The notes below the pieces were generated by a model. The model worked only from the letters and a program-made list of their open reading frames with translations, was not told the DNA's origin and ran no database searches. Both the position numbers and the translations under genes were made by a program. Positions 206-22,924 of a DNA stretch of 25,631 bases are shown in pieces. This DNA comes from Nitrososphaerota archaeon (lineage in GTDB: Archaea > Thermoproteota > Nitrososphaeria > Nitrososphaerales > UBA57), in NCBI GenBank assembly GCA_002713205.1, contig PAVW01000019.1:1-25631 (forward strand), written 5' to 3'. Numbering within the stretch: the first letter of the stretch is position 1; each line of letters starts with the position of its first letter.

Positions 206-1741
206 TTAAGGATTTGGTAATGCAGCTTTTGGCTTGGCTATCTTTTTCTTTGTAAGAATCTTATTGATTCCATCAATCATTGCCTCTGCACTTGCTACAA
301 CAATATCTCCATGAGATGAGCGCGCAGTAGCAACATTGCCTTCATCATCTTCTACTTTAATCACAACTTCTCCTAATGCATCTGTTCCTCCTGTTATTGC
401 ATCTATTTTAAAGTCCTTTAATCTAATATGAGCAATTTTATCACTAATTTTTTGAATTGCTTTAATGGCTGCATCTACAGGTCCTACTCCTGTTTCAGAA
501 GCTAAGAAAGTCTCTTCTTCCATTACAACCTTAACTGAAGCAGTTGGAGTTGATTTAATTCCTGTCATTACTGATATATCGACGAGTTCAATGATTCTTT
601 CTTCAGATACTTTTCCTAATATCGCTCTAGCAATTGAATCCAAATCTACATCAGTTAATTTTTTTCCTTTATCGCCTAAATCTTTCACACGCGATAATAT
701 TTCTTTCACTTGTTTTTCCGATGCATTATATCCTAATTCTTCTAATTGTGCCTTTATTCCGTGTGTTCCTGCATGTTTACCTGCTTGTATCCATCTCTTT
801 CTTCCAACTGTTTCTGGTTCCAATGGTTCATATGTAATTGGCATGTTGATAATTCCATGAACATGAATTCCTGACTCATGTCCAAATGCATTATCTCCTA
901 TAATTGCTTTATTTGGTTGTGGACCTATACCTGTTAATCTAGTAACTAATTTCGATGTTTCATAAATTAATTTTGTATTCACGTTAGTTTTTTTCTGATA
1001 TAGATTTTGACTTGCCATTACGACTTCTTCTAATGCTGCATTTCCAGCCCTTTCTCCTAGGCCATTAATTGCAACATGGATTCTTTCAGCTCCAGCAAGC
1101 ATACCTGCTAATGAATTTGCAGTTGCTAATCCAAAATCATTATGACAATGCATGCTTATTGGTCTTTTAATTACTTGTTTAACTTTAGATACTAACTCAT
1201 ACATTGTTGTTGGATTCATTATTCCTACTGTATCTGCTATATCTATCCTGTCTGCCCCAACATTACTTACTTCTTGAAAAACTTTAATCAAAAAATCTGG
1301 ATCTGATCTACAGGCATCTTCTGCTGAAAATTCTACTGGTACTCCTCTATCCTTGACTATTTTTACCATGTCTCTAGCGGCTTTTAAGACTTGGTCTCTG
1401 TCCATTTTCAATTTATATTTCATATGAATATCTGACGTAGCTATAAACACGTGTACTAAATCTACATTACAACTTAATGCTGTTTCAATATCTCTTGGTT
1501 CTGCTCTTGCCAATCCGCATATTTCGCTTTTCAATCCTAATTCTGCTATATTCTTAACAGCTTCTGATTCTCCTTTTGAAGTTATTGGGAACCCTGCTTC
1601 AATAGTATCTACTCCTAGTTTATCCAATTGAATTGCGATTTGTACTTTTTCTTCTGGTGTAAGACTAATTCCAGGAGTTTGTTCTCCATCTCGAAGAGTA
1701 GTGTCAAATATTTTAATAATATTAGAATCAGACAAAATCAT
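206..1741 (-). CDS. leuA: 2-isopropylmalate synthase (LeuA/CimA family)
   Basis: 511-aa ORF with HMGL-type motifs [29 protein letters not shown] and [14 protein letters not shown], plus a C-terminal LeuA-dimer-like region. Isopropylmalate and citramalate synthase cannot be separated by eye. Its position between ilvN and leuC favours leuA. Confidence 0.88.
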
Positions 1742-2220
1742 TATTCGCCTCTTTCAATTGCGGTCAATCCCGTTCTAGCTATTTCTACTTTTCCATATTT
1801 GTTAATATTGTTAATAAAATCAACTATCTTTTCCGACGTCCCTGTAATTTCAATAACCATTGATTTCATCGATTCATCAATAATTGTTCCTATATTTGCA
1901 ATATCTCTAATTTCTGGAATCAATTTTGGATTATCAACATATATTTTGATTAATGCTAATTCTTTTTTTATTATTCTATTTGTATCAAGGATTTTCGCTT
2001 CTACTACGTCAGTTTGCTTATTCATAACACTTACTAATTGATTAATTGCTGATTCTTCAGCATCTACTACAAATGTCATTCTTGACATTGAACTATCGTT
2101 TAGTTCTCCCACTGATATGCTTCTGATATTATATCCTCTTTGCCTGAATACATTTACGGCTCTATAAAGAACTCCTGGTTTATTTTCTACAACGGTTGAA
2201 ATTAAAAATTCATTTTTCAT
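1741..2220 (-). CDS. ilvN: acetolactate synthase (AHAS) small regulatory subunit
   Basis: 159-aa ORF with an N-terminal ACT domain (VENKPGVLYRAVNVFRQRGYNIRSISVG..MSRMTFVV). Its stop overlaps the leuA start as TAATG, sharing the A at 1741. Confidence 0.88.
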   Translation of the reverse strand: MKNEFLISTVVENKPGVLYRAVNVFRQRGYNIRSISVGELNDSSMSRMTFVVDAEESAINQLVSVMNKQTDVVEAKILDTNRIIKKELALIKIYVDNPKLIPEIRDIANIGTIIDESMKSMVIEITGTSEKIVDFINNINKYGKVEIARTGLTAIERGE

Positions 2221-2541
2221 TTTTTTATATTCACCAATAATTAATATACAAATATTTTAGATTAAGCACGCAATAAAACATAATATTCACCAAAAAGCGT
2301 TATTCGGTGTATCGGTTTATAGATTAAGTAAGAGACTAGGTAAAGTCTCCAATTTTAATACTGATAGCAATTTATTATTAACGCTCACACTTCTACCAGC
2401 ATTGATGCAATTAATAAATCTTACTACGTGATATGATTATTTTTACCTATTACCGTTTAATATCACTATTTTCATTATTGTAACAATCATCTTTCATTAA
2501 TTTAAAGTCAAATTTATTATTATGATTTGTATTCTATTATT

Positions 2542-3477
2542 ATGATGAATAGTTCTGATATGGTTAAAATATATCTTAGTCTAAATAATTATGCTTTTTA
2601 TTGGTCTTTTCCAGAACTAGTTGCAATTGAAAATGGTTATTATGCTGATCAAGGACTTGAACTCAATCTCAATGATATAACTCCTGTAGAAAAAATTTCA
2701 AATAAAAGTCAGTTATATGGAAATCTTCAACAAAATAAATTATCTGATTTCTATCACGCTGCAGAACTTGTTTCAATATCACGTGTTATTGAATCTCATG
2801 GAAATTCTAAAATTATTGCACTGTCTCCATGGACCGAATCTGGTGTTAATGGAAGTTTTGCTTTATTTACAAAAATGAGTTCTATTGTTAATAATTTCCA
2901 TGACTTATTTGATAAAAAAATAGCAATTGAATCTGGTACAGGTTCATACTATCGCACAATTGCTGAACTTGAAGCATTATTTCCAATTAAAGAAGATAAT
3001 CTAGTAAAAATGGGTGATCCTCATGAACGTTTATTATCAGTTCTGAATGATGATGTTTTTGCATCTAGTATTATGGGAATTTATGTTGATATTGCTAATA
3101 TACTCGGTCTAAAAAAAATCATGACTTACTCTGGAAAGACCGGAACATTAATGGTAGGAAAATCTGATATTGATGTTGAACTTATTAATTCATTTATTAA
3201 AGGTACGAATCGTGCTATAACTGAAATTAACCATAGATCAGAAACATTGAAGGAATTATGGTTTTCAAAAATTGAGTTTATTATTAAAAATGCATTTCCT
3301 GTTCATTTACAAGGGATTATTCTTGAACACAAAGATGATATTACTATTCCAAAATGGGAACCATGGCAAAAATATCCCAAAATTCAATTTGAAGAAAATT
3401 ATAGTTGGTTAATTGATAGAAATCTTGTACAATCTGGTTACAGTTATGATCAATTGGTCCGTTCATCTATTTTTTGA
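2542..3477 (+). CDS. NMT1/THI5-SsuA-like substrate-binding-fold protein, no signal peptide
   Basis: The ORF opens at TTG 2527. In-frame ATGs lie at 2542, 2545 and 2560, so the start is uncertain. The pattern VKIYLSLNNYAFYWSFPELVAIENGYYADQGLEL..IAIESGTGSYY resembles cytoplasmic members of the periplasmic-binding-protein type 2 (NMT1/SsuA) fold. No hydrophobic leader is present. Confidence 0.5.
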   Translation: MMNSSDMVKIYLSLNNYAFYWSFPELVAIENGYYADQGLELNLNDITPVEKISNKSQLYGNLQQNKLSDFYHAAELVSISRVIESHGNSKIIALSPWTESGVNGSFALFTKMSSIVNNFHDLFDKKIAIESGTGSYYRTIAELEALFPIKEDNLVKMGDPHERLLSVLNDDVFASSIMGIYVDIANILGLKKIMTYSGKTGTLMVGKSDIDVELINSFIKGTNRAITEINHRSETLKELWFSKIEFIIKNAFPVHLQGIILEHKDDITIPKWEPWQKYPKIQFEENYSWLIDRNLVQSGYSYDQLVRSSIF

Positions 3478-3484
3478 TAATTAT

Positions 3485-4141
3485 TCATTTATTTCTTAAT
3501 GCTTCTTTCCAGTAAGGACATCTGTTGTTTAACATACAATTATTACAATCGGGTTTTTTTGCCTGACAAATAGTTCTTCCATGAAGAATGAATAAAATCG
3601 AAATTCTGCCCCAGAATTCTTCTGGAATGACTTTTAGTAAATCATTTTCAATTTTCTTTGGATTGATATTTCTTGTCAAATTTAGTCTTTTACTTAATCT
3701 TGCCACATGAGTATCTACTGCAATTCCTTCATTTTTATTAAATGCAACAGATAATACGATATTTGCTGTTTTTCTTCCAACTCCATCAAGTTCTAATAAA
3801 TCTTGCATATTATCTGGAATTTTCTCATTATGCTTTTCAATTATTCTATTAGAGGTGTTAATTATTCTACGTGCTTTTAATTTATAATAACCTGTGGATT
3901 TGATAAGTTTTTTTACATCTTCGATATCTGCTTCTGCTAAATCTCTAACATATGGATATTTTTTAAATAGATTTACCGTTGTTTTATTTACAATTTTATC
4001 AGTGCATTGTGCAGACAGTATAGTTGCAATAAGAAGTTGAAATGGTGAATTATAAATTAATTCAGTGTTTATATTGCGATAAGATTTATCTAATTTTTTT
4101 ATTATATGATTTATATATTCATTCATGGTAGATTCTTGCAC
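3485..4141 (-). CDS. nth: endonuclease III (DNA glycosylase/AP lyase)
   Basis: 218-aa ORF with the HhH-GPD motif LLELDGVGRKTANIVL and a C-terminal 4Fe-4S cluster loop CQAKKPDCNNCMLNNRC (C-x6-C-x2-C-x5-C). Confidence 0.92.
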   Translation of the reverse strand: MQESTMNEYINHIIKKLDKSYRNINTELIYNSPFQLLIATILSAQCTDKIVNKTTVNLFKKYPYVRDLAEADIEDVKKLIKSTGYYKLKARRIINTSNRIIEKHNEKIPDNMQDLLELDGVGRKTANIVLSVAFNKNEGIAVDTHVARLSKRLNLTRNINPKKIENDLLKVIPEEFWGRISILFILHGRTICQAKKPDCNNCMLNNRCPYWKEALRNK

Positions 4142-11835: not shown

Positions 11836-12066
11836 TTAATATTTAATAACCGTCATTGTTTCGGTTGAAAGTACATTTTTATTGTTTCTAATTTTCTTTA
11901 ATGAATTATTTAATTCTTGTACATTAGAAGTTTTTACAATGGCAATTAAATCGTAAAATCTATAAACTAGATTTATTGCTGTGATATTTTGATTTTTTTT
12001 GATTTTACTCAAACAGTTTTTTTCTTTACCCTGATTTGTATTAATTAAAACGTATGCAATTGGCAT
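11836..12066 (-). CDS. stand-alone RAM (Lrp/AsnC ligand-binding) domain protein
   Basis: 76-aa ORF with a beta-alpha-beta-beta-alpha-beta pattern: AYVLINT..G.E......IKK...I.A..LVYRFYDLIAIV....V.EL......IR....V..TETMTVI. No HTH domain is present. It ends 16 nt upstream of tiaS. Confidence 0.7.
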   Translation of the reverse strand: MPIAYVLINTNQGKEKNCLSKIKKNQNITAINLVYRFYDLIAIVKTSNVQELNNSLKKIRNNKNVLSTETMTVIKY

Positions 12067-12121: not shown

Positions 12122-13915
12122 TTATCTGACACTATCTAGCATTTGATTTAAAATTGATAGTGTTTCATTTATCCTTTTTTCTATATCTTTTTGCAACTGC
12201 TTGATTCTTTTTTCAAAGTCATTTTTATTAATATTTTTATGATTTAATTGCTCATATGACTTTATGATTTGAAATATATCTCTTTCTAACGATTGTTCCA
12301 ATTGATTTATTTTATTTATTTTTTCTTTTTGTGTATTGTCTAAATTTGATATTTCTCGTTTTAATAGCCCTAATGTATTTGCATACCTATTTTTAATTGC
12401 GGTTAATTCATTTCTTATATTATTAAGATGTTCTTGCTTAACATTTTCTGAACTTAAATTTATTAATCCGCTTAAAATATTTTTTTCAAATGTAATTTTT
12501 TCACTATATTTTGATAATAGTTCTCTTGTTTTTTTAATTATTTCTTTTTCTTCTTCTTCTTTTGGTTTTTCTCTATAGACTAATAACCCTAATAATATTG
12601 TAATAAATATTATTGAAGTTGTGGGTATTATGTTCATACTTGCCCATGATAAAGTTGGTGTAAATTCTACTGTGATATTTTTTCCATATAATTGTTCACT
12701 GTTTTTAAGTTCAGTTATCATGGATTTTGTTTTTACTGAAAAGGCATCTGGACTATTTATAACAATACTATATTTCTCACTAATTGTTGGTAATGGTGAT
12801 TCCGTTGGAATTGTTACAGTTATTGAATTGATATTGTGACTTATGTATTTTTCAGGTAATGGATATACAAAAGTTAAGATCGCAGATTGTTCTTCTGGAA
12901 TTCCTATTCTCAAAATTTCTGTAATACTTAATCTGTTAGCTGGTGGATTTAATAATATCACTAATTTTTTACTATTTAATGCAGGTTCTCTATTTGGTAC
13001 TGTTGTAATTGTTTTTGCTAGCGGAACTCCATTTTCGTCTACTTCAGGTCCAATTAAATTTACTGGAATGTATTTAAGATCATAAAATCCTTTGTTGGTT
13101 ATTTTTATCGTTTCTTTTATCATAATTTTTCCATTTTTGGCAATAAATATTTCTCTCACAATTTCGTCTACTATGACTTTTGAAAATGCATTAGAATCTT
13201 CAGTTTCTGTTAAGAAAAAATATTCAAATTTTTGATCCCACATTGGCTCAATATTTGCATGTACTGATGTAATCACATCGTAAATTTGAAAACTTGTTCG
13301 TGTATAATGTTGTGAAATATTTGCATAAGTAGCAGTTTCAGGAACATACATTATGAAGTTTAGTCGATCTAAATGGAAATTTGTTGTTGTAATTTCAGGA
13401 ATTAAGACTTTATATAATCCTTCTTTTTCAGTTAATTCAACCACATCTACAAGAATTAGCTTAAGAGTAATTTCAATATCGCTTCCTTTTATAATTTCAA
13501 AATTCTCATTTCTGAAATCTATTGTAACAACTGTGTTTCTTTTGTTTTGAGAAATTATTACTAATTCGTTCACATGTTTAATATTTAGTTCTTCTAAAGA
13601 CTCAGATGAGGCTTCATAGGCACTTATTTTATTTTCATATTCTTTTGGCAAGAAAAATGAAATTGGCTGATTGAATTTTATAGCTGGAGCAACTGTGTTA
13701 TTGTTGGTTAATGTGATTCTGTATTCAATTAATAATCTTCCTAATTCATTTATCTCAAATTTACTCTCTAATGTTATTGGCAATTGATTCCTGTCAACAT
13801 CGCTTGAAAAAGGACATTCCACCATTGAAGTTCCAGGAATGCATTCTTCATGTGCGTTTGCTACTTGAATTATTGTGCCAAATAAAAGCAAAAAGCAAAT
13901 AATTAATATCTTCAT
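12122..13915 (-). CDS. type-I membrane protein: signal peptide, about 400-aa ectodomain, one TM, about 150-aa coiled-coil cytoplasmic tail (possible ribophorin-I-like)
   Basis: 597-aa ORF with a leader MKILIICFLLLFGTIIQVANA|HEE and a TM segment IIPTTSIIFITILLGLLVY at about aa 425-447. The K/E/N-rich heptad-like tail runs to the C terminus. The coding call is strong. The functional idea is speculative (see findings). Confidence 0.8.
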   Translation of the reverse strand: MKILIICFLLLFGTIIQVANAHEECIPGTSMVECPFSSDVDRNQLPITLESKFEINELGRLLIEYRITLTNNNTVAPAIKFNQPISFFLPKEYENKISAYEASSESLEELNIKHVNELVIISQNKRNTVVTIDFRNENFEIIKGSDIEITLKLILVDVVELTEKEGLYKVLIPEITTTNFHLDRLNFIMYVPETATYANISQHYTRTSFQIYDVITSVHANIEPMWDQKFEYFFLTETEDSNAFSKVIVDEIVREIFIAKNGKIMIKETIKITNKGFYDLKYIPVNLIGPEVDENGVPLAKTITTVPNREPALNSKKLVILLNPPANRLSITEILRIGIPEEQSAILTFVYPLPEKYISHNINSITVTIPTESPLPTISEKYSIVINSPDAFSVKTKSMITELKNSEQLYGKNITVEFTPTLSWASMNIIPTTSIIFITILLGLLVYREKPKEEEEKEIIKKTRELLSKYSEKITFEKNILSGLINLSSENVKQEHLNNIRNELTAIKNRYANTLGLLKREISNLDNTQKEKINKINQLEQSLERDIFQIIKSYEQLNHKNINKNDFEKRIKQLQKDIEKRINETLSILNQMLDSVR

Positions 13916-14084
13916 TTATTTAACAAAAGTGCTGATTTTTTATATAATATATCTTTTTTTGAATTTCAAATAATTAAATCTGAATTAAAGTCAAATTTAA
14001 TTCATTAATTGTATAATTTATTCATTATTAACAAATAAAGACTTTTTTGTTCTTATATTAAGGTGTGAAGGGGGCATTTATTTA

Positions 14085-15098
14085 ATGGAATCAGAAATTA
14101 TCTTTGTTGGACTAGGCGATTTTGGTTGTCGTATTCTATCAAAAATTGAACAACAAAATCACAACATTGCTTCGTTTTGTTACTTAAGTAATAATGCTAA
14201 CGATTTTCCAAAATTTACAACTGGCGAGAAATTAGAAATTGTTCTCAATATTGGCGGTAAATTATCTCCTGCTCATATTCGTGGCATTGTACTGAGCCAA
14301 TTAGAGGCTCTCTCTTCTAAATTTAAAACTTCTAAATTAGTCATTATAATTTCATCAGCAGATGGAGACCTTGGTTCTGCTCTTTTACCCTACCTATCAA
14401 ATATTTGTTCGAATAATAATGTTAAATGTTTATCTATATTATCAATGCCATTTTCATTTGAAAAACAAAAACATTTCAATGCAGGTTTAACTCTTCGTCA
14501 CTCTAAACAATATTCCGATGGTATAATATTGATAAATAAAGATGAAATATTTAATGCATTTCCTCAAATTCCAATAGTTCAAGCTTATGATTTTGTAGAT
14601 GATAAAATTGCATTTTCTATTTCTAGTTTACTTGGTCCTAATGATTACGGCGATATTAATTTGCATAATTTATTTGAAATCACTGAAAGAAATAATTTTT
14701 CTGTTCTAAGTATTGGTGAATCTAAAAATGCTTCGAATAACAGTGACATTGCTATCAAAGGCGCACTTAAAATGCTCTCAAAAACTGTTAATCCATCTTC
14801 TGCTGATCGTGTTCTATTATTTCTTAATAGTGGAAAACAACTTTCTACTAGTGATGTTGCATCTTCAATTAATTCTGTACGCGGTTTGATTGGTAAAAAA
14901 TTATCTCATTTCACTCATGGTTATAAGACCAGTGATTCTATTCAAACCACTGCAATAGTTTTATCTTCTGGTTTCCAAAGCACTATATTTGATGATTATG
15001 ATCCATTGTCTACATTACTTGCTGGTAAAGAAATTGACGATGATCTAGAATGTAACTTAGATATTGATATTGGAATTGATACAATATCTGAAGCATAA
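14085..15098 (+). CDS. divergent FtsZ/tubulin-superfamily protein with degenerate GTP-binding motifs
   Basis: 337-aa ORF that aligns colinearly by eye with FtsZ. IIFVGLGDFGCR replaces the T1 motif GxGGxGxN. IIISSADGDLGSALLP replaces the T4 motif GLGGGTGTGSAP. DGIILINKDEIF matches DxxxVIxNExL. INLHNLFEI replaces the T7 motif NxDFAD. FSVLSIGES matches xAxxGxGxx. Confidence 0.8.
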   Translation: MESEIIFVGLGDFGCRILSKIEQQNHNIASFCYLSNNANDFPKFTTGEKLEIVLNIGGKLSPAHIRGIVLSQLEALSSKFKTSKLVIIISSADGDLGSALLPYLSNICSNNNVKCLSILSMPFSFEKQKHFNAGLTLRHSKQYSDGIILINKDEIFNAFPQIPIVQAYDFVDDKIAFSISSLLGPNDYGDINLHNLFEITERNNFSVLSIGESKNASNNSDIAIKGALKMLSKTVNPSSADRVLLFLNSGKQLSTSDVASSINSVRGLIGKKLSHFTHGYKTSDSIQTTAIVLSSGFQSTIFDDYDPLSTLLAGKEIDDDLECNLDIDIGIDTISEA

Positions 15099-15114
15099 GA
15101 TTAAATTCACACGT

Positions 15115-15534
15115 TTATTTTTCTTCTTTCAATTCAGGATTATTATCTGACGGTTTATCTTCTTTAGATTCTTCTACTTCTGGTAAGGCACTAGTCTTTT
15201 CTTCTTTCAATTCAGGATTTATATCTATGATTTTGTTTTCTTTTTTACTTAGTTTTTCTTTTGGTATTGTCTTTTTTGATTCTATGTTACTTATTGTAAC
15301 TACTCCTTCTTTATTTTTTATTAATTTAATTTGAATTTTTCGTGGTGGATGCCTTTTTCCTCTTTTCCATAAGAATTCACTAACATCTGTAGAAATTTTA
15401 ACTTCTTCTGTTCGTCCATGTCTTTTAGCAAACTTTCTTAATATATTGATAGCTTTATTCGTTCGTTTTTGTCTTGGTACGAGCCAAGCTTTACCTAAAT
15501 TTACATTATAAATTCTTTCAAATTCCTCTGACAT
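15115..15534 (-). CDS. rpl31e: 50S ribosomal protein eL31 (L31e) with an acidic/lysine-rich C-terminal extension
   Basis: The first 85 aa or so (ERIYNVNLGKAW.VPRQKRTNKAINILRKFAKRH...WKRGKRHPPRKIQIKL) match L31e. The remaining 50 aa or so are low-complexity and contain NPELKEEK twice. Confidence 0.9.
   Translation of the reverse strand: MSEEFERIYNVNLGKAWLVPRQKRTNKAINILRKFAKRHGRTEEVKISTDVSEFLWKRGKRHPPRKIQIKLIKNKEGVVTISNIESKKTIPKEKLSKKENKIIDINPELKEEKTSALPEVEESKEDKPSDNNPELKEEK
15119..15219. repeat. 23-nt perfect direct repeat (TTTTCTTCTTTCAATTCAGGATT) at 15119-15141 and 15197-15219
   Basis: Read directly from the sequence. The copies are offset by 78 nt (26 codons) and both encode NPELKEEK in the eL31 tail. 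Confidence 0.85.
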
Positions 15535-15690
15535 CTATTTCACCTCTAATTTTGTTCTTCTCCAATGTCTTCTTTTTGGATTTGTTGTAACTGCTCTTCT
15601 AGTTTTAACTACTACCCAAGTTGGAACTGCTACGTTTTGCCTTCTTTTTTTTAATAATCTTTTTTTTATACCTGATGTTTTTTTTGACAA
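15535..15690 (-). CDS. rpl39e: 50S ribosomal protein eL39 (L39e)
   Basis: Absent from the ORF track (51 aa). Minus-strand translation from TTG at 15690 gives (M)[50 protein letters not shown]. This is the eL39 signature (VP.WV..KT.R.V...PKRR.WRRTKL). The upstream gene's TAA abuts the TTG, and its own TAG abuts the eL31 ATG. Confidence 0.9.
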
Positions 15691-15984
15691 TTATGCCCAC
15701 CTTATTTTAAAGTCTTTTTGTGGCTGCTGCATAGATGTTAAAAATTCCTTGATTTCTTTATCGGTTATTGCTTTTTTCAATCTACCCGAAGATGCTAATT
15801 GTATTATATTATCTTCAATTATTTTGGCTGTATCGGGTTTAACCATTCTTATTTTGTAAAGTCTTTCTCTTGCTTCTGACGTAAGCAATACTTTGAGCAT
15901 TTGCTCCCGCATTGCTTTTTGACTGTCTACTGTCTTCGCTTGGGATGATTCAAGTTCTTTTATATTATCTGGTGATTCTGCCAT
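15691..15984 (-). CDS. PDCD5/TFAR19-like dsDNA-binding protein
   Basis: 97-aa ORF. The segment LLTSEARERLYKIRMVKPDTAKIIEDNIIQLASSGRL..ITDKEIKEFL is typical of the archaeal dsDNA_bind (PDCD5) family. This family commonly precedes rpl39e-rpl31e. Confidence 0.85.
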   Translation of the reverse strand: MAESPDNIKELESSQAKTVDSQKAMREQMLKVLLTSEARERLYKIRMVKPDTAKIIEDNIIQLASSGRLKKAITDKEIKEFLTSMQQPQKDFKIRWA

Positions 15985-22300: not shown

Positions 22301-22308
22301 TTTTTTTT
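22301..22308 (+). terminator. oligo-T (T8) tract downstream of tRNA-Thr
   Basis: A T8 run lies 10 nt after the discriminator base. It abuts and slightly overlaps the 3' end of the convergent YHS-MauE gene. Confidence 0.4.
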
Positions 22309-22924
22309 ATGCAAAAATTATTATTGTGGCCATAATTACCATAATAATATTTTCTATTAGTGTAAATTTTGTTAGAGGGATTTTTATTTTTGTTCCAAGA
22401 CAAGCACATTTCACTTGATTTTTTGATAATAAATTTTTTGTTATTCCTATAGATCCAATTCCCATAATTAATAATGTTATCCACGCAGCTATGATAATGA
22501 CAACTTCATTAAAGTAAAAAACTCCAATTAAATATATAATTCCTAAAATAAATTCAATTTCAGGATATAACAACGCATATACATTTATTCTCTTTGCAAT
22601 GACGTCGTATTTTGAAAATGCTTTGACAAAACCTTTCAAGTCAGAGATTTTCGCGATTGAAAAAACAATAAAATAGATTCCCATGTATGCTATCATAAAA
22701 TCATTTATTACTGCCCAAATTGCCACTACGGTTAATGTTATTCCTATAATCCATGGAATTCTATCATTGAATTTATTTTGTTTTTGAAATTTCTTTGCAG
22801 TGAAAATTTCTTTACAATTATTATTACAAAAATAATATTTTATTCCTGTTCTTTCAAAAACTAGATTGTTTTTTATTGCTTCTTTTTCATTTACTTCCAT
22901 ATTGCAAATGGGGTCTCTTTCCAC
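22307..22924 (-). CDS. YHS-domain / MauE(DoxX)-like membrane fusion protein
   Basis: 205-aa ORF. The N-terminal YHS/TRASH-type metal-binding motif is DPICNMEV....YYFCNNNCKEIF. It is followed by 4-5 TM helices and a CACLG motif, as in the MauE family. The start is GTG at 22924. The first ATG would cut the DPICNM motif. Confidence 0.7.
   Translation of the reverse strand: MERDPICNMEVNEKEAIKNNLVFERTGIKYYFCNNNCKEIFTAKKFQKQNKFNDRIPWIIGITLTVVAIWAVINDFMIAYMGIYFIVFSIAKISDLKGFVKAFSKYDVIAKRINVYALLYPEIEFILGIIYLIGVFYFNEVVIIIAAWITLLIMGIGSIGITKNLLSKNQVKCACLGTKIKIPLTKFTLIENIIMVIMATIIIFA

Follow-up and report, generated by a model that had tools for sequence, protein, structure and literature searches.

A thaumarchaeal protein family related to the oligosaccharyltransferase subunit OST1/ribophorin I

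In the mammalian oligosaccharyltransferase (OST) complex OST-A, the four-helix bundle of ribophorin I (RPN1) contacts the ribosome. Homologues of the subunits OST1 and OST3/6 were first reported in Asgard archaea and have been treated as eukaryotic signature proteins (PMC10307638; PMC8993221), an earlier survey with hidden Markov models found no promising prokaryotic candidates for the non-catalytic OST subunits (PMC4973528), and the occurrence of OST1 in TACK archaea takes up one sentence of a 2024 paper, in which the C-terminal domains of human and MK-D1 OST1 are also reported to pull down ribosomes (PMC11417166). Our literature search found no mention of ribophorin for Nitroso- taxa in this sense. 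Here we analyse a gene on the minus strand (12122..13915) of contig PAVW01000019.1 from a marine Nitrososphaerota archaeon (Thaumarchaeota) of the ammonia-oxidiser type (GenBank assembly GCA_002713205.1); the whole 25,631-nucleotide stretch is hereafter called the window. The gene product is very probably a divergent thaumarchaeal homologue of OST1/RPN1. A preliminary description, made from the bare DNA sequence, had put it forward as a candidate archaeal OST1: the homology holds, and the host belongs to Nitrososphaerota, not to the Asgard archaea. The system is of a known kind; what is new is a family member, in a second archaeal phylum, that had gone unannotated and that Pfam does not recognise. 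The surprise is limited because OST1 had already been stated to occur in TACK archaea.

The closest described relatives are the Asgard OST1 proteins (that of MK-D1, PDB 8WHN, and the Lokiarchaeota protein P0074), which measure about 600-620 amino acids (aa), follow the same order of parts, end in a helical tail of about 150 aa and share with the thaumarchaeal proteins the blocks R-E-I-x-[IV]-S-x-x-G, [FY]-E-E-K just after the transmembrane helix and D-x-L-N-L-x-E in the tail. They differ in sequence (about 19-24 % identity) and in host phylum, the thaumarchaeal hosts being Nitrososphaerota, and most of them pass the Pfam Ribophorin_I model (PF04597) whereas the thaumarchaeal proteins do not; the MK-D1 tail is known to bind ribosomes (PMC11417166), whereas docking of the thaumarchaeal tail is proposed here by analogy. 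Mammalian RPN1 (OST-A and OST-B; 6S7O, 6S7T, 8B6L, 8PN9) is the best structural match both over the full length (E 2e-22) and for the tail (TM-score 0.82), and it agrees in topology, size and position of the signature block, although it is only about 9-11 % identical to the thaumarchaeal protein and has another setting: RPN1 lies in the endoplasmic reticulum membrane within an eight-subunit complex with a TMEM258/Ost5 partner, whereas the membrane of the thaumarchaeal protein would be the cell membrane. Yeast Ost1p (6EZN, 6C26, 7OCI, 8AGB) matches in the fold of ectodomain and transmembrane helix (E about 1e-13 over about 475 columns) but, judged from the lengths of its modelled chains (432-438 residues), has no long cytosolic four-helix bundle; in possessing a predicted bundle of this kind, the thaumarchaeal protein is like metazoan and Asgard OST1 and unlike yeast Ost1.

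Sequence relationship to OST1 and predicted fold

The relationship was traced through the family of the window protein. An exhaustive phmmer search with residues 1-450 against 1.84 billion representatives (E<=1e-3) recovered 39 family proteins, and 32 full-length members (526-597 aa) could be aligned end-to-end with the query in what we call alignment A2, the distant ones being 16-36 % identical to it; a word-indexed homologue search returned only relatives of 76-95 % identity. When the family profile was run against a large protein collection it found a 613-aa Lokiarchaeota protein (P0074) at E 2e-7, which itself scores 70.3 bits on PF04597 (cut-off 25) and aligns with A2 by hhalign at 98 % probability and E 1.6e-13 over 461 columns. 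Seeded with this Lokiarchaeota protein, a further search brought up 93 homologues from Asgard archaea, about 600-620 aa in length, and PF04597 is present in the majority of them. Comparison of A2 with an alignment of 17 of these Asgard sequences (A5) gave 99.4 % probability and E 1.6e-21 over 475 co-linear columns, running from the first beta strand through the transmembrane helix and into the tail (FEEK aligned with YEEK, DLLNLYEQY with DSLNLLESRY). The Asgard profile in turn reaches human RPN1 at E 8.1e-9 and, at E 2e-44, 8WHN, a crystal structure that covers the C-terminal domain of the 'Ribophorin 1 superfamily protein' of MK-D1. The profile-profile comparison that the preliminary description had proposed as a check thus links the family significantly to Asgard proteins carrying Ribophorin_I.

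The same description had named a conserved ribophorin block and placed its counterpart near aa 250. The motif REIFIAKNGKIMIKETIKITNKG does begin at aa 254, and the family profile aligns it to residues 217-255 of human RPN1, the very block so named, position 254 corresponding to position 230 (with a sequence-only E of 0.11 for the match as a whole). In the hhalign comparison aa 254-276 face the Asgard REIYISPWGII.V.E...I.N.G; the W in the WG of the mid-luminal signature R-x-I-E-V-S-x-W-G-N-I-x-V-x-E...G is not conserved.

The predicted structure points in the same direction. For the full-length AlphaFold2 model, computed from the 32-sequence alignment, the mean predicted local distance difference test score (pLDDT) is 84.1, with low values only at residues 12-41 and mostly 85-96 from aa 45 onwards, and DSSP assigns to it strands over aa 47-420, a transmembrane helix at 422-447 and four helices within 452-596. 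Compared with 350,542 PDB chains by Foldseek, the model places human RPN1 at ranks 1-4 (8b6l_O, 2e-22; 6s7o_E, 1.8e-19; 8pn9_E, 1e-17; 6s7t_E, 7.5e-15) and yeast Ost1 at ranks 5-8 (7oci_A, 8agb_E, 6c26_1 and 6ezn_A, with E around 1e-13 and up to 6e-13). All eight matches have probability 1.00; the ninth, a generic Ig-domain protein, follows at 1.6e-6, after a gap of seven orders of magnitude. In the model, then, the ectodomain has the RPN1/Ost1 fold, and the structural comparison suggested earlier comes out in favour of the ribophorin-I-like identity.

For the tail, a separate AlphaFold2 model (pLDDT 93.7, predicted TM-score 0.84) consists of four long helices, for which the PDB comparison ranks RPN1 of the ribosome-Sec61-TRAP-OST-A map first (8b6l_O; TMq 0.82, root-mean-square deviation 2.4 Å, 143 columns), the next-best TM-score among the tail matches listed being 0.64. 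The tail assignment, by co-linearity and shape, is well supported, although less strongly than that of the ectodomain, because the Foldseek E for this match is just 0.047, the MK-D1 chain 8whn_A is absent from the top 50 Foldseek matches of the tail model, and a tail-only hhalign against the Asgard alignment gives E 4e-4 at 35 % probability. The absence of 8WHN may reflect different helix packing angles.

These three tail results are among several that speak against the identification. Four-helix bundles are a common fold, and the TM-scores of the full-length model to RPN1/Ost1 are merely 0.34-0.50, which we attribute to a putative difference in domain orientation. The window protein alone has no hmmscan match to PF04597 even at E<=10, so the Pfam check proposed in the preliminary description fails for the single protein; the gathering threshold of 25 bits is not reached, and only two of the 32 relatives match weakly (best E 8e-4). 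Single-sequence searches of Pfam, NCBIfam and the PDB returned only chance-level coiled-coil matches (RST, LysB, Txe/YoeB, keratin), and when the family profile was compared with PDB sequences human RPN1 (6s7o_E) appeared at a sub-significant E of 0.11, ranked below chance matches to the arginine repressor, a carbohydrate-binding module and a cadherin. A profile of the tail gave no relevant match among the PDB sequences. The weak Pfam matches and the RPN1 match at E 0.11 are suggestive only. Pfam matches to DUF2207 (E 0.016) and CdvA (E 8.5e-4) were each confined to single members and were treated as noise.

Such negatives could be taken to mean that the likeness is one of topology only, a generic combination of signal peptide, beta-rich ectodomain, transmembrane helix and coiled coil unrelated to ribophorin I, as the preliminary description had itself allowed; the single protein has no direct Pfam, NCBIfam or PDB sequence match, and beta-sandwich and helical-bundle folds are common. 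Convergence of this kind is nevertheless very unlikely, close to dismissible in our estimate, because hhalign connects the family to PF04597-bearing Asgard proteins along 475 co-linear columns and the eight top fold matches in the PDB are exclusively RPN1/Ost1; the signature block, moreover, aligns with RPN1. Both the profile comparison and the predicted ectodomain fold came out on the side of common descent, and the ribophorin-I-like identity is upheld by the two together.

Gene layout, conservation and distribution

The open reading frame at 12122..13915 starts with ATG and encodes 597 aa, in a region of 25-28 % G+C compared with about 30 % for the window. The gene is real, as homologues of 76-95 % identity lie on many marine metagenome contigs and the family extends across the phylum with the same architecture. 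Its parts are as follows.

12122..13915, minus strand: complete OST1/ribophorin-I-like coding sequence, 597 aa plus stop codon, from the list of open reading frames
13853..13915, minus strand: predicted signal peptide MKILIICFLLLFGTIIQVANA, aa 1-21; hydropathy peak at aa 1-23, predicted cleavage before HEE
12644..13852, minus strand: predicted extracellular beta-rich domain, aa 22-424, from Foldseek and from hhalign to Asgard PF04597 proteins; aa 22-44 variable and modelled with low confidence
13088..13156, minus strand: conserved block REIFIAKNGKIMIKETIKITNKG, aa 254-276, from the family alignment; aligned to RPN1 and Asgard OST1
12575..12643, minus strand: predicted single transmembrane helix, aa 425-447, from hydropathy, the model helix at 422-447 and alignment with the Asgard OST1 transmembrane segment
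12125..12574, minus strand: predicted cytoplasmic basic four-helix-bundle domain, aa 448-597, from the tail-only AlphaFold2 model, Foldseek and co-linear hhalign
13916..14084, no strand: AT-rich 169-bp spacer between the OST1-like gene and a divergently transcribed FtsZ/tubulin-like gene, read from the sequence

Exactly two hydrophobic segments, aa 1-23 and aa 424-448, stand out in the protein with a 19-residue Kyte-Doolittle window. The first is the leader MKILIICFLLLFGTIIQVANA|HEE, compatible with the A-x-A rule, by which the signal would be cleaved before HEE; the second, IIPTTSIIFITILLGLLVY, is followed by REKPKEEEEK, the basic residues after the membrane segment (YREKPK) agreeing with the positive-inside rule. 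Taken together they predict a type-I topology, with a signal peptide, one transmembrane helix and a cytoplasmic C-terminus, and this layout is kept in 32 of 32 members. The ectodomain is acidic (isoelectric point, pI, 5.0), while the 150-aa tail is rich in K (14 %), E (13 %) and N (12 %) and has a pI of 9.2. The elements listed in the preliminary description (leader, beta-rich ectodomain of about 400 aa, membrane segment at about aa 425-447 followed by YREK, K/E-rich tail of about 150 aa) are all found where it had placed them. In the spacer a TATA-like run, TATATTATATAAAAAA, lies at about 13936-13951, that is 21-36 nt upstream of the OST1-like ATG, and it might serve as a promoter element.

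An N-terminal hydrophobic leader is present in all aligned family members. Three positions (G59, Y351 and F437) are invariant in the 32-member alignment and a further set is nearly so (N71, P192, R254, G262, N274, P311, L313, P374, W424, P431 and R545). The tail carries the conserved motifs FEEK and D-R-x3-D-x2-N-L-Y-E-Q-Y, and at seven of its columns (473, 501, 508, 510, 519, 545 and 576) K or R occurs in more than 90 % of the members.

The gene is conserved across Nitrososphaerota, with relatives in at least 58 species-level genomes of the phylum. A degenerate-pattern scan with the terrestrial sub-alignment (A4) located 58 loci in GTDB species representatives, from sources that include soil, peat and groundwater; those records that name a lineage are Nitrososphaerales, 'Nitrosopumilales', Thaumarchaeota or Nitrososphaerota metagenome-assembled genomes (MAGs), and the others are titled 'archaeon' and, in one case, 'bacterium'. 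Scanned with the alignment of close homologues (A1), the genome contigs yielded no relative. The exact 597-aa protein is present in public collections, where its 90 % cluster includes MBE19223.1 of a Thaumarchaeota archaeon, a protein of 589 aa whose start is called 8 aa shorter and which is annotated 'hypothetical protein CMO11_04500', as well as further members from mesopelagic samples of Tara Oceans; among the neighbours, the dihydroxy-acid dehydratase and the acetate-CoA ligase correspond to NCBI MBE19216.1 and MBE19232.1 (Thaumarchaeota archaeon / Nitrososphaerota MAG). One member bears the Joint Genome Institute label 'Txe/YoeB family toxin of Txe-Axe toxin-antitoxin module', which we regard as spurious, the product of a chance NCBIfam match in the helical tail (TIGR02116, E 0.18). 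A phylum-wide gene labelled 'hypothetical' or wrongly 'Txe/YoeB toxin' can now be named, and the PF04597 model could be extended by thaumarchaeal sequences.

OST1, which has been used as an Asgard-to-eukaryote marker, is conserved outside the Asgard archaea too. A full-length OST1 with a bundle of the ribosome-docking type across Nitrososphaerota would place the origin of the subunit deeper in the archaea.

Proposed role and genomic context

Most probably the protein works at the site of export. Its acidic beta-sandwich ectodomain would lie on the outer face of the cytoplasmic membrane, held by the single transmembrane anchor, with the basic four-helix bundle in the cytoplasm; by analogy with OST-A and MK-D1 OST1 it would stand beside the SecYE-beta channel and the catalytic AglB (the STT3 homologue), with the bundle docked on the translating ribosome and the ectodomain placed next to AglB and the emerging polypeptides. 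The outcome would be a coupling of translocation to N-glycosylation of secreted and S-layer proteins. The basic tail (pI 9.2) and its seven conserved K/R columns are consistent with the proposed ribosome docking, and the conservation of the gene across the phylum also speaks for the proposed function; the contacts with AglB and the ribosome, as well as the effect on glycosylation, we infer by analogy with the described relatives. By this analogy, action at the translocon and AglB with ribosome docking seems to us a little better than an even bet. A relative of OST1/ribophorin I, at the level of an orthologue, that couples translocation to N-glycosylation beside SecYE-beta/AglB is, taken overall, the explanation that we favour, with moderate confidence.

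The genomic surroundings lend this role no help. Archaeal AglB is commonly taken to act as a single subunit. At none of 61 loci is there, within 10 kb on either side, an aglB-like open reading frame (WWDxG signature, more than 400 aa), so that the synteny with aglB that the preliminary description had suggested looking for is absent, and all neighbours of the OST1-like gene are housekeeping genes. In the window these are leuA, ilvN, nth, ilvD, an ArgZ/LOR-SDH-like gene, an MFS transporter, TFE-alpha, an EamA transporter, TiaS, a 76-aa AsnC-domain protein, L31e, L39e, a PDCD5-like DNA-binding protein and CoaBC, and DeoC, an acetyl-CoA synthetase and a branched-chain amino-acid ATP-binding cassette (ABC) transporter are encoded there as well; glycosylation genes are absent from the window. 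The 20-kb gene order of the window recurs unchanged in marine relatives (36 % protein identity). Around the OST1-like gene of a further Nitrososphaerota MAG the context differs, and the genes conserved beside the OST1-like gene of the terrestrial clade are gcvP1/P2, a thioredoxin-reductase-like flavoprotein, MetRS, S-adenosylhomocysteine hydrolase and a radical-SAM enzyme.

This context bears on a second reading, in which the protein is an OST1-fold accessory of the translocon that works with SecYE-beta and the ribosome independently of AglB, perhaps as a scaffold or holdase for nascent proteins under export; only the Asgard/eukaryote line would then have recruited it into an OST complex. The resemblance of the tail to the ribosome-contacting domain of RPN1 would suit such a role, as would the missing genomic link to aglB in the 61 loci and the housekeeping, translation-related contexts (L31e, L39e, TiaS, MetRS). 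OST1 is, however, part of OST wherever it has been studied (structures 6ezn, 6s7o, 8b6l), and little can be read from missing synteny with aglB in archaea, where the genes for N-glycosylation are often dispersed. Since no AglB-like gene lies near any of the 61 loci and the neighbours are housekeeping genes, we grant the AglB-independent role a minor but real chance.

Upstream of the OST1-like gene, head-to-head with it in the window, stands a divergent gene of the tubulin/FtsZ family (14085-15098, plus strand, 337 aa; Pfam Tubulin E 2.3e-10). Of 59 Nitrososphaerota loci, 53 have an FtsZ-like open reading frame upstream on the opposite strand, 0.14-4.7 kb away; the two genes are separated in the terrestrial clade by gcvP1, gcvP2 and a 104-aa open reading frame. 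The pairing is probably retained synteny and not an operon, and since most genomes have unrelated genes between the two, we consider a functional link to the FtsZ-like neighbour unlikely.

One could nonetheless build on this neighbour a third reading, that of a surface protein of the cell envelope or of cell division, only anciently related to OST1, whose Ig-like ectodomains would contact the S-layer and whose tail would contact the FtsZ-like protein or Cdv. The recurrence of the FtsZ/tubulin-family gene upstream on the opposite strand would fit, together with a weak coiled-coil match to CdvA in one member (E 8.5e-4) and a match of the family profile to CdvA 9s9g at E 1.1. The three unrelated genes that separate the pair in the terrestrial clade mean that there is no operon, the CdvA matches are at the chance level expected of K/E-rich helices, and the best structural match of the tail is RPN1; we consider the envelope or division role improbable.

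A bolder reading goes beyond this gene. Thaumarchaeota, and by implication the ancestor of TACK and Asgard archaea, would already have had a multi-subunit, ribosome-docked N-glycosylation translocon (SecY-AglB-OST1), a tentative proposal that we rate somewhat below an even chance. Were it true, OST1 would be an older archaeal invention and not an Asgard-derived eukaryotic signature protein, and AglB would have partner subunits in a phylum that is cultivable and abundant worldwide. Nitrosopumilus and Nitrososphaera offer cultivable organisms in which to study whether archaeal AglB has partners and works co-translationally.

Further genes of the window and of a related genome

Downstream of the OST1-like gene, at a distance of 55 bp, lies a stand-alone Lrp/AsnC ligand-binding-domain protein of 76 aa that lacks a helix-turn-helix (11836-12066, minus strand); the order OST1-like gene, AsnC-domain gene and TiaS is kept in L002 and L003, relatives at 36 % identity. 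Ribosomal protein L39e is encoded by a 51-codon open reading frame with a TTG start between the L31e and PDCD5-like genes (15535-15690, minus strand); it is too short for the list of open reading frames, and the same gene is called as PF00832 in L002 and L003. A 205-aa protein (22307-22924, minus strand), whose gene adjoins the branched-chain amino-acid ABC transporter, joins an N-terminal YHS domain (E 2.5e-5, below the Pfam cut-off) to a MauE/DoxX-like membrane domain.

Two observations concern L001, a Nitrososphaerota MAG (GCA_033581455.1). A 902-aa protein encoded 4 kb from its OST1-like gene (13087-15795, plus strand) has faint matches to TRAP_beta and to the Ig-like CARDB/NPCBM_assoc; generic resemblance among Ig folds probably accounts for the TRAP_beta match. 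On the same contig, a few kb upstream of the gene for the OST1-like protein (640-3882, minus strand), a phage-like capsid gene (Phage_capsid_4) and Mu-type portal genes suggest an integrated virus or provirus remnant in this thaumarchaeal MAG.

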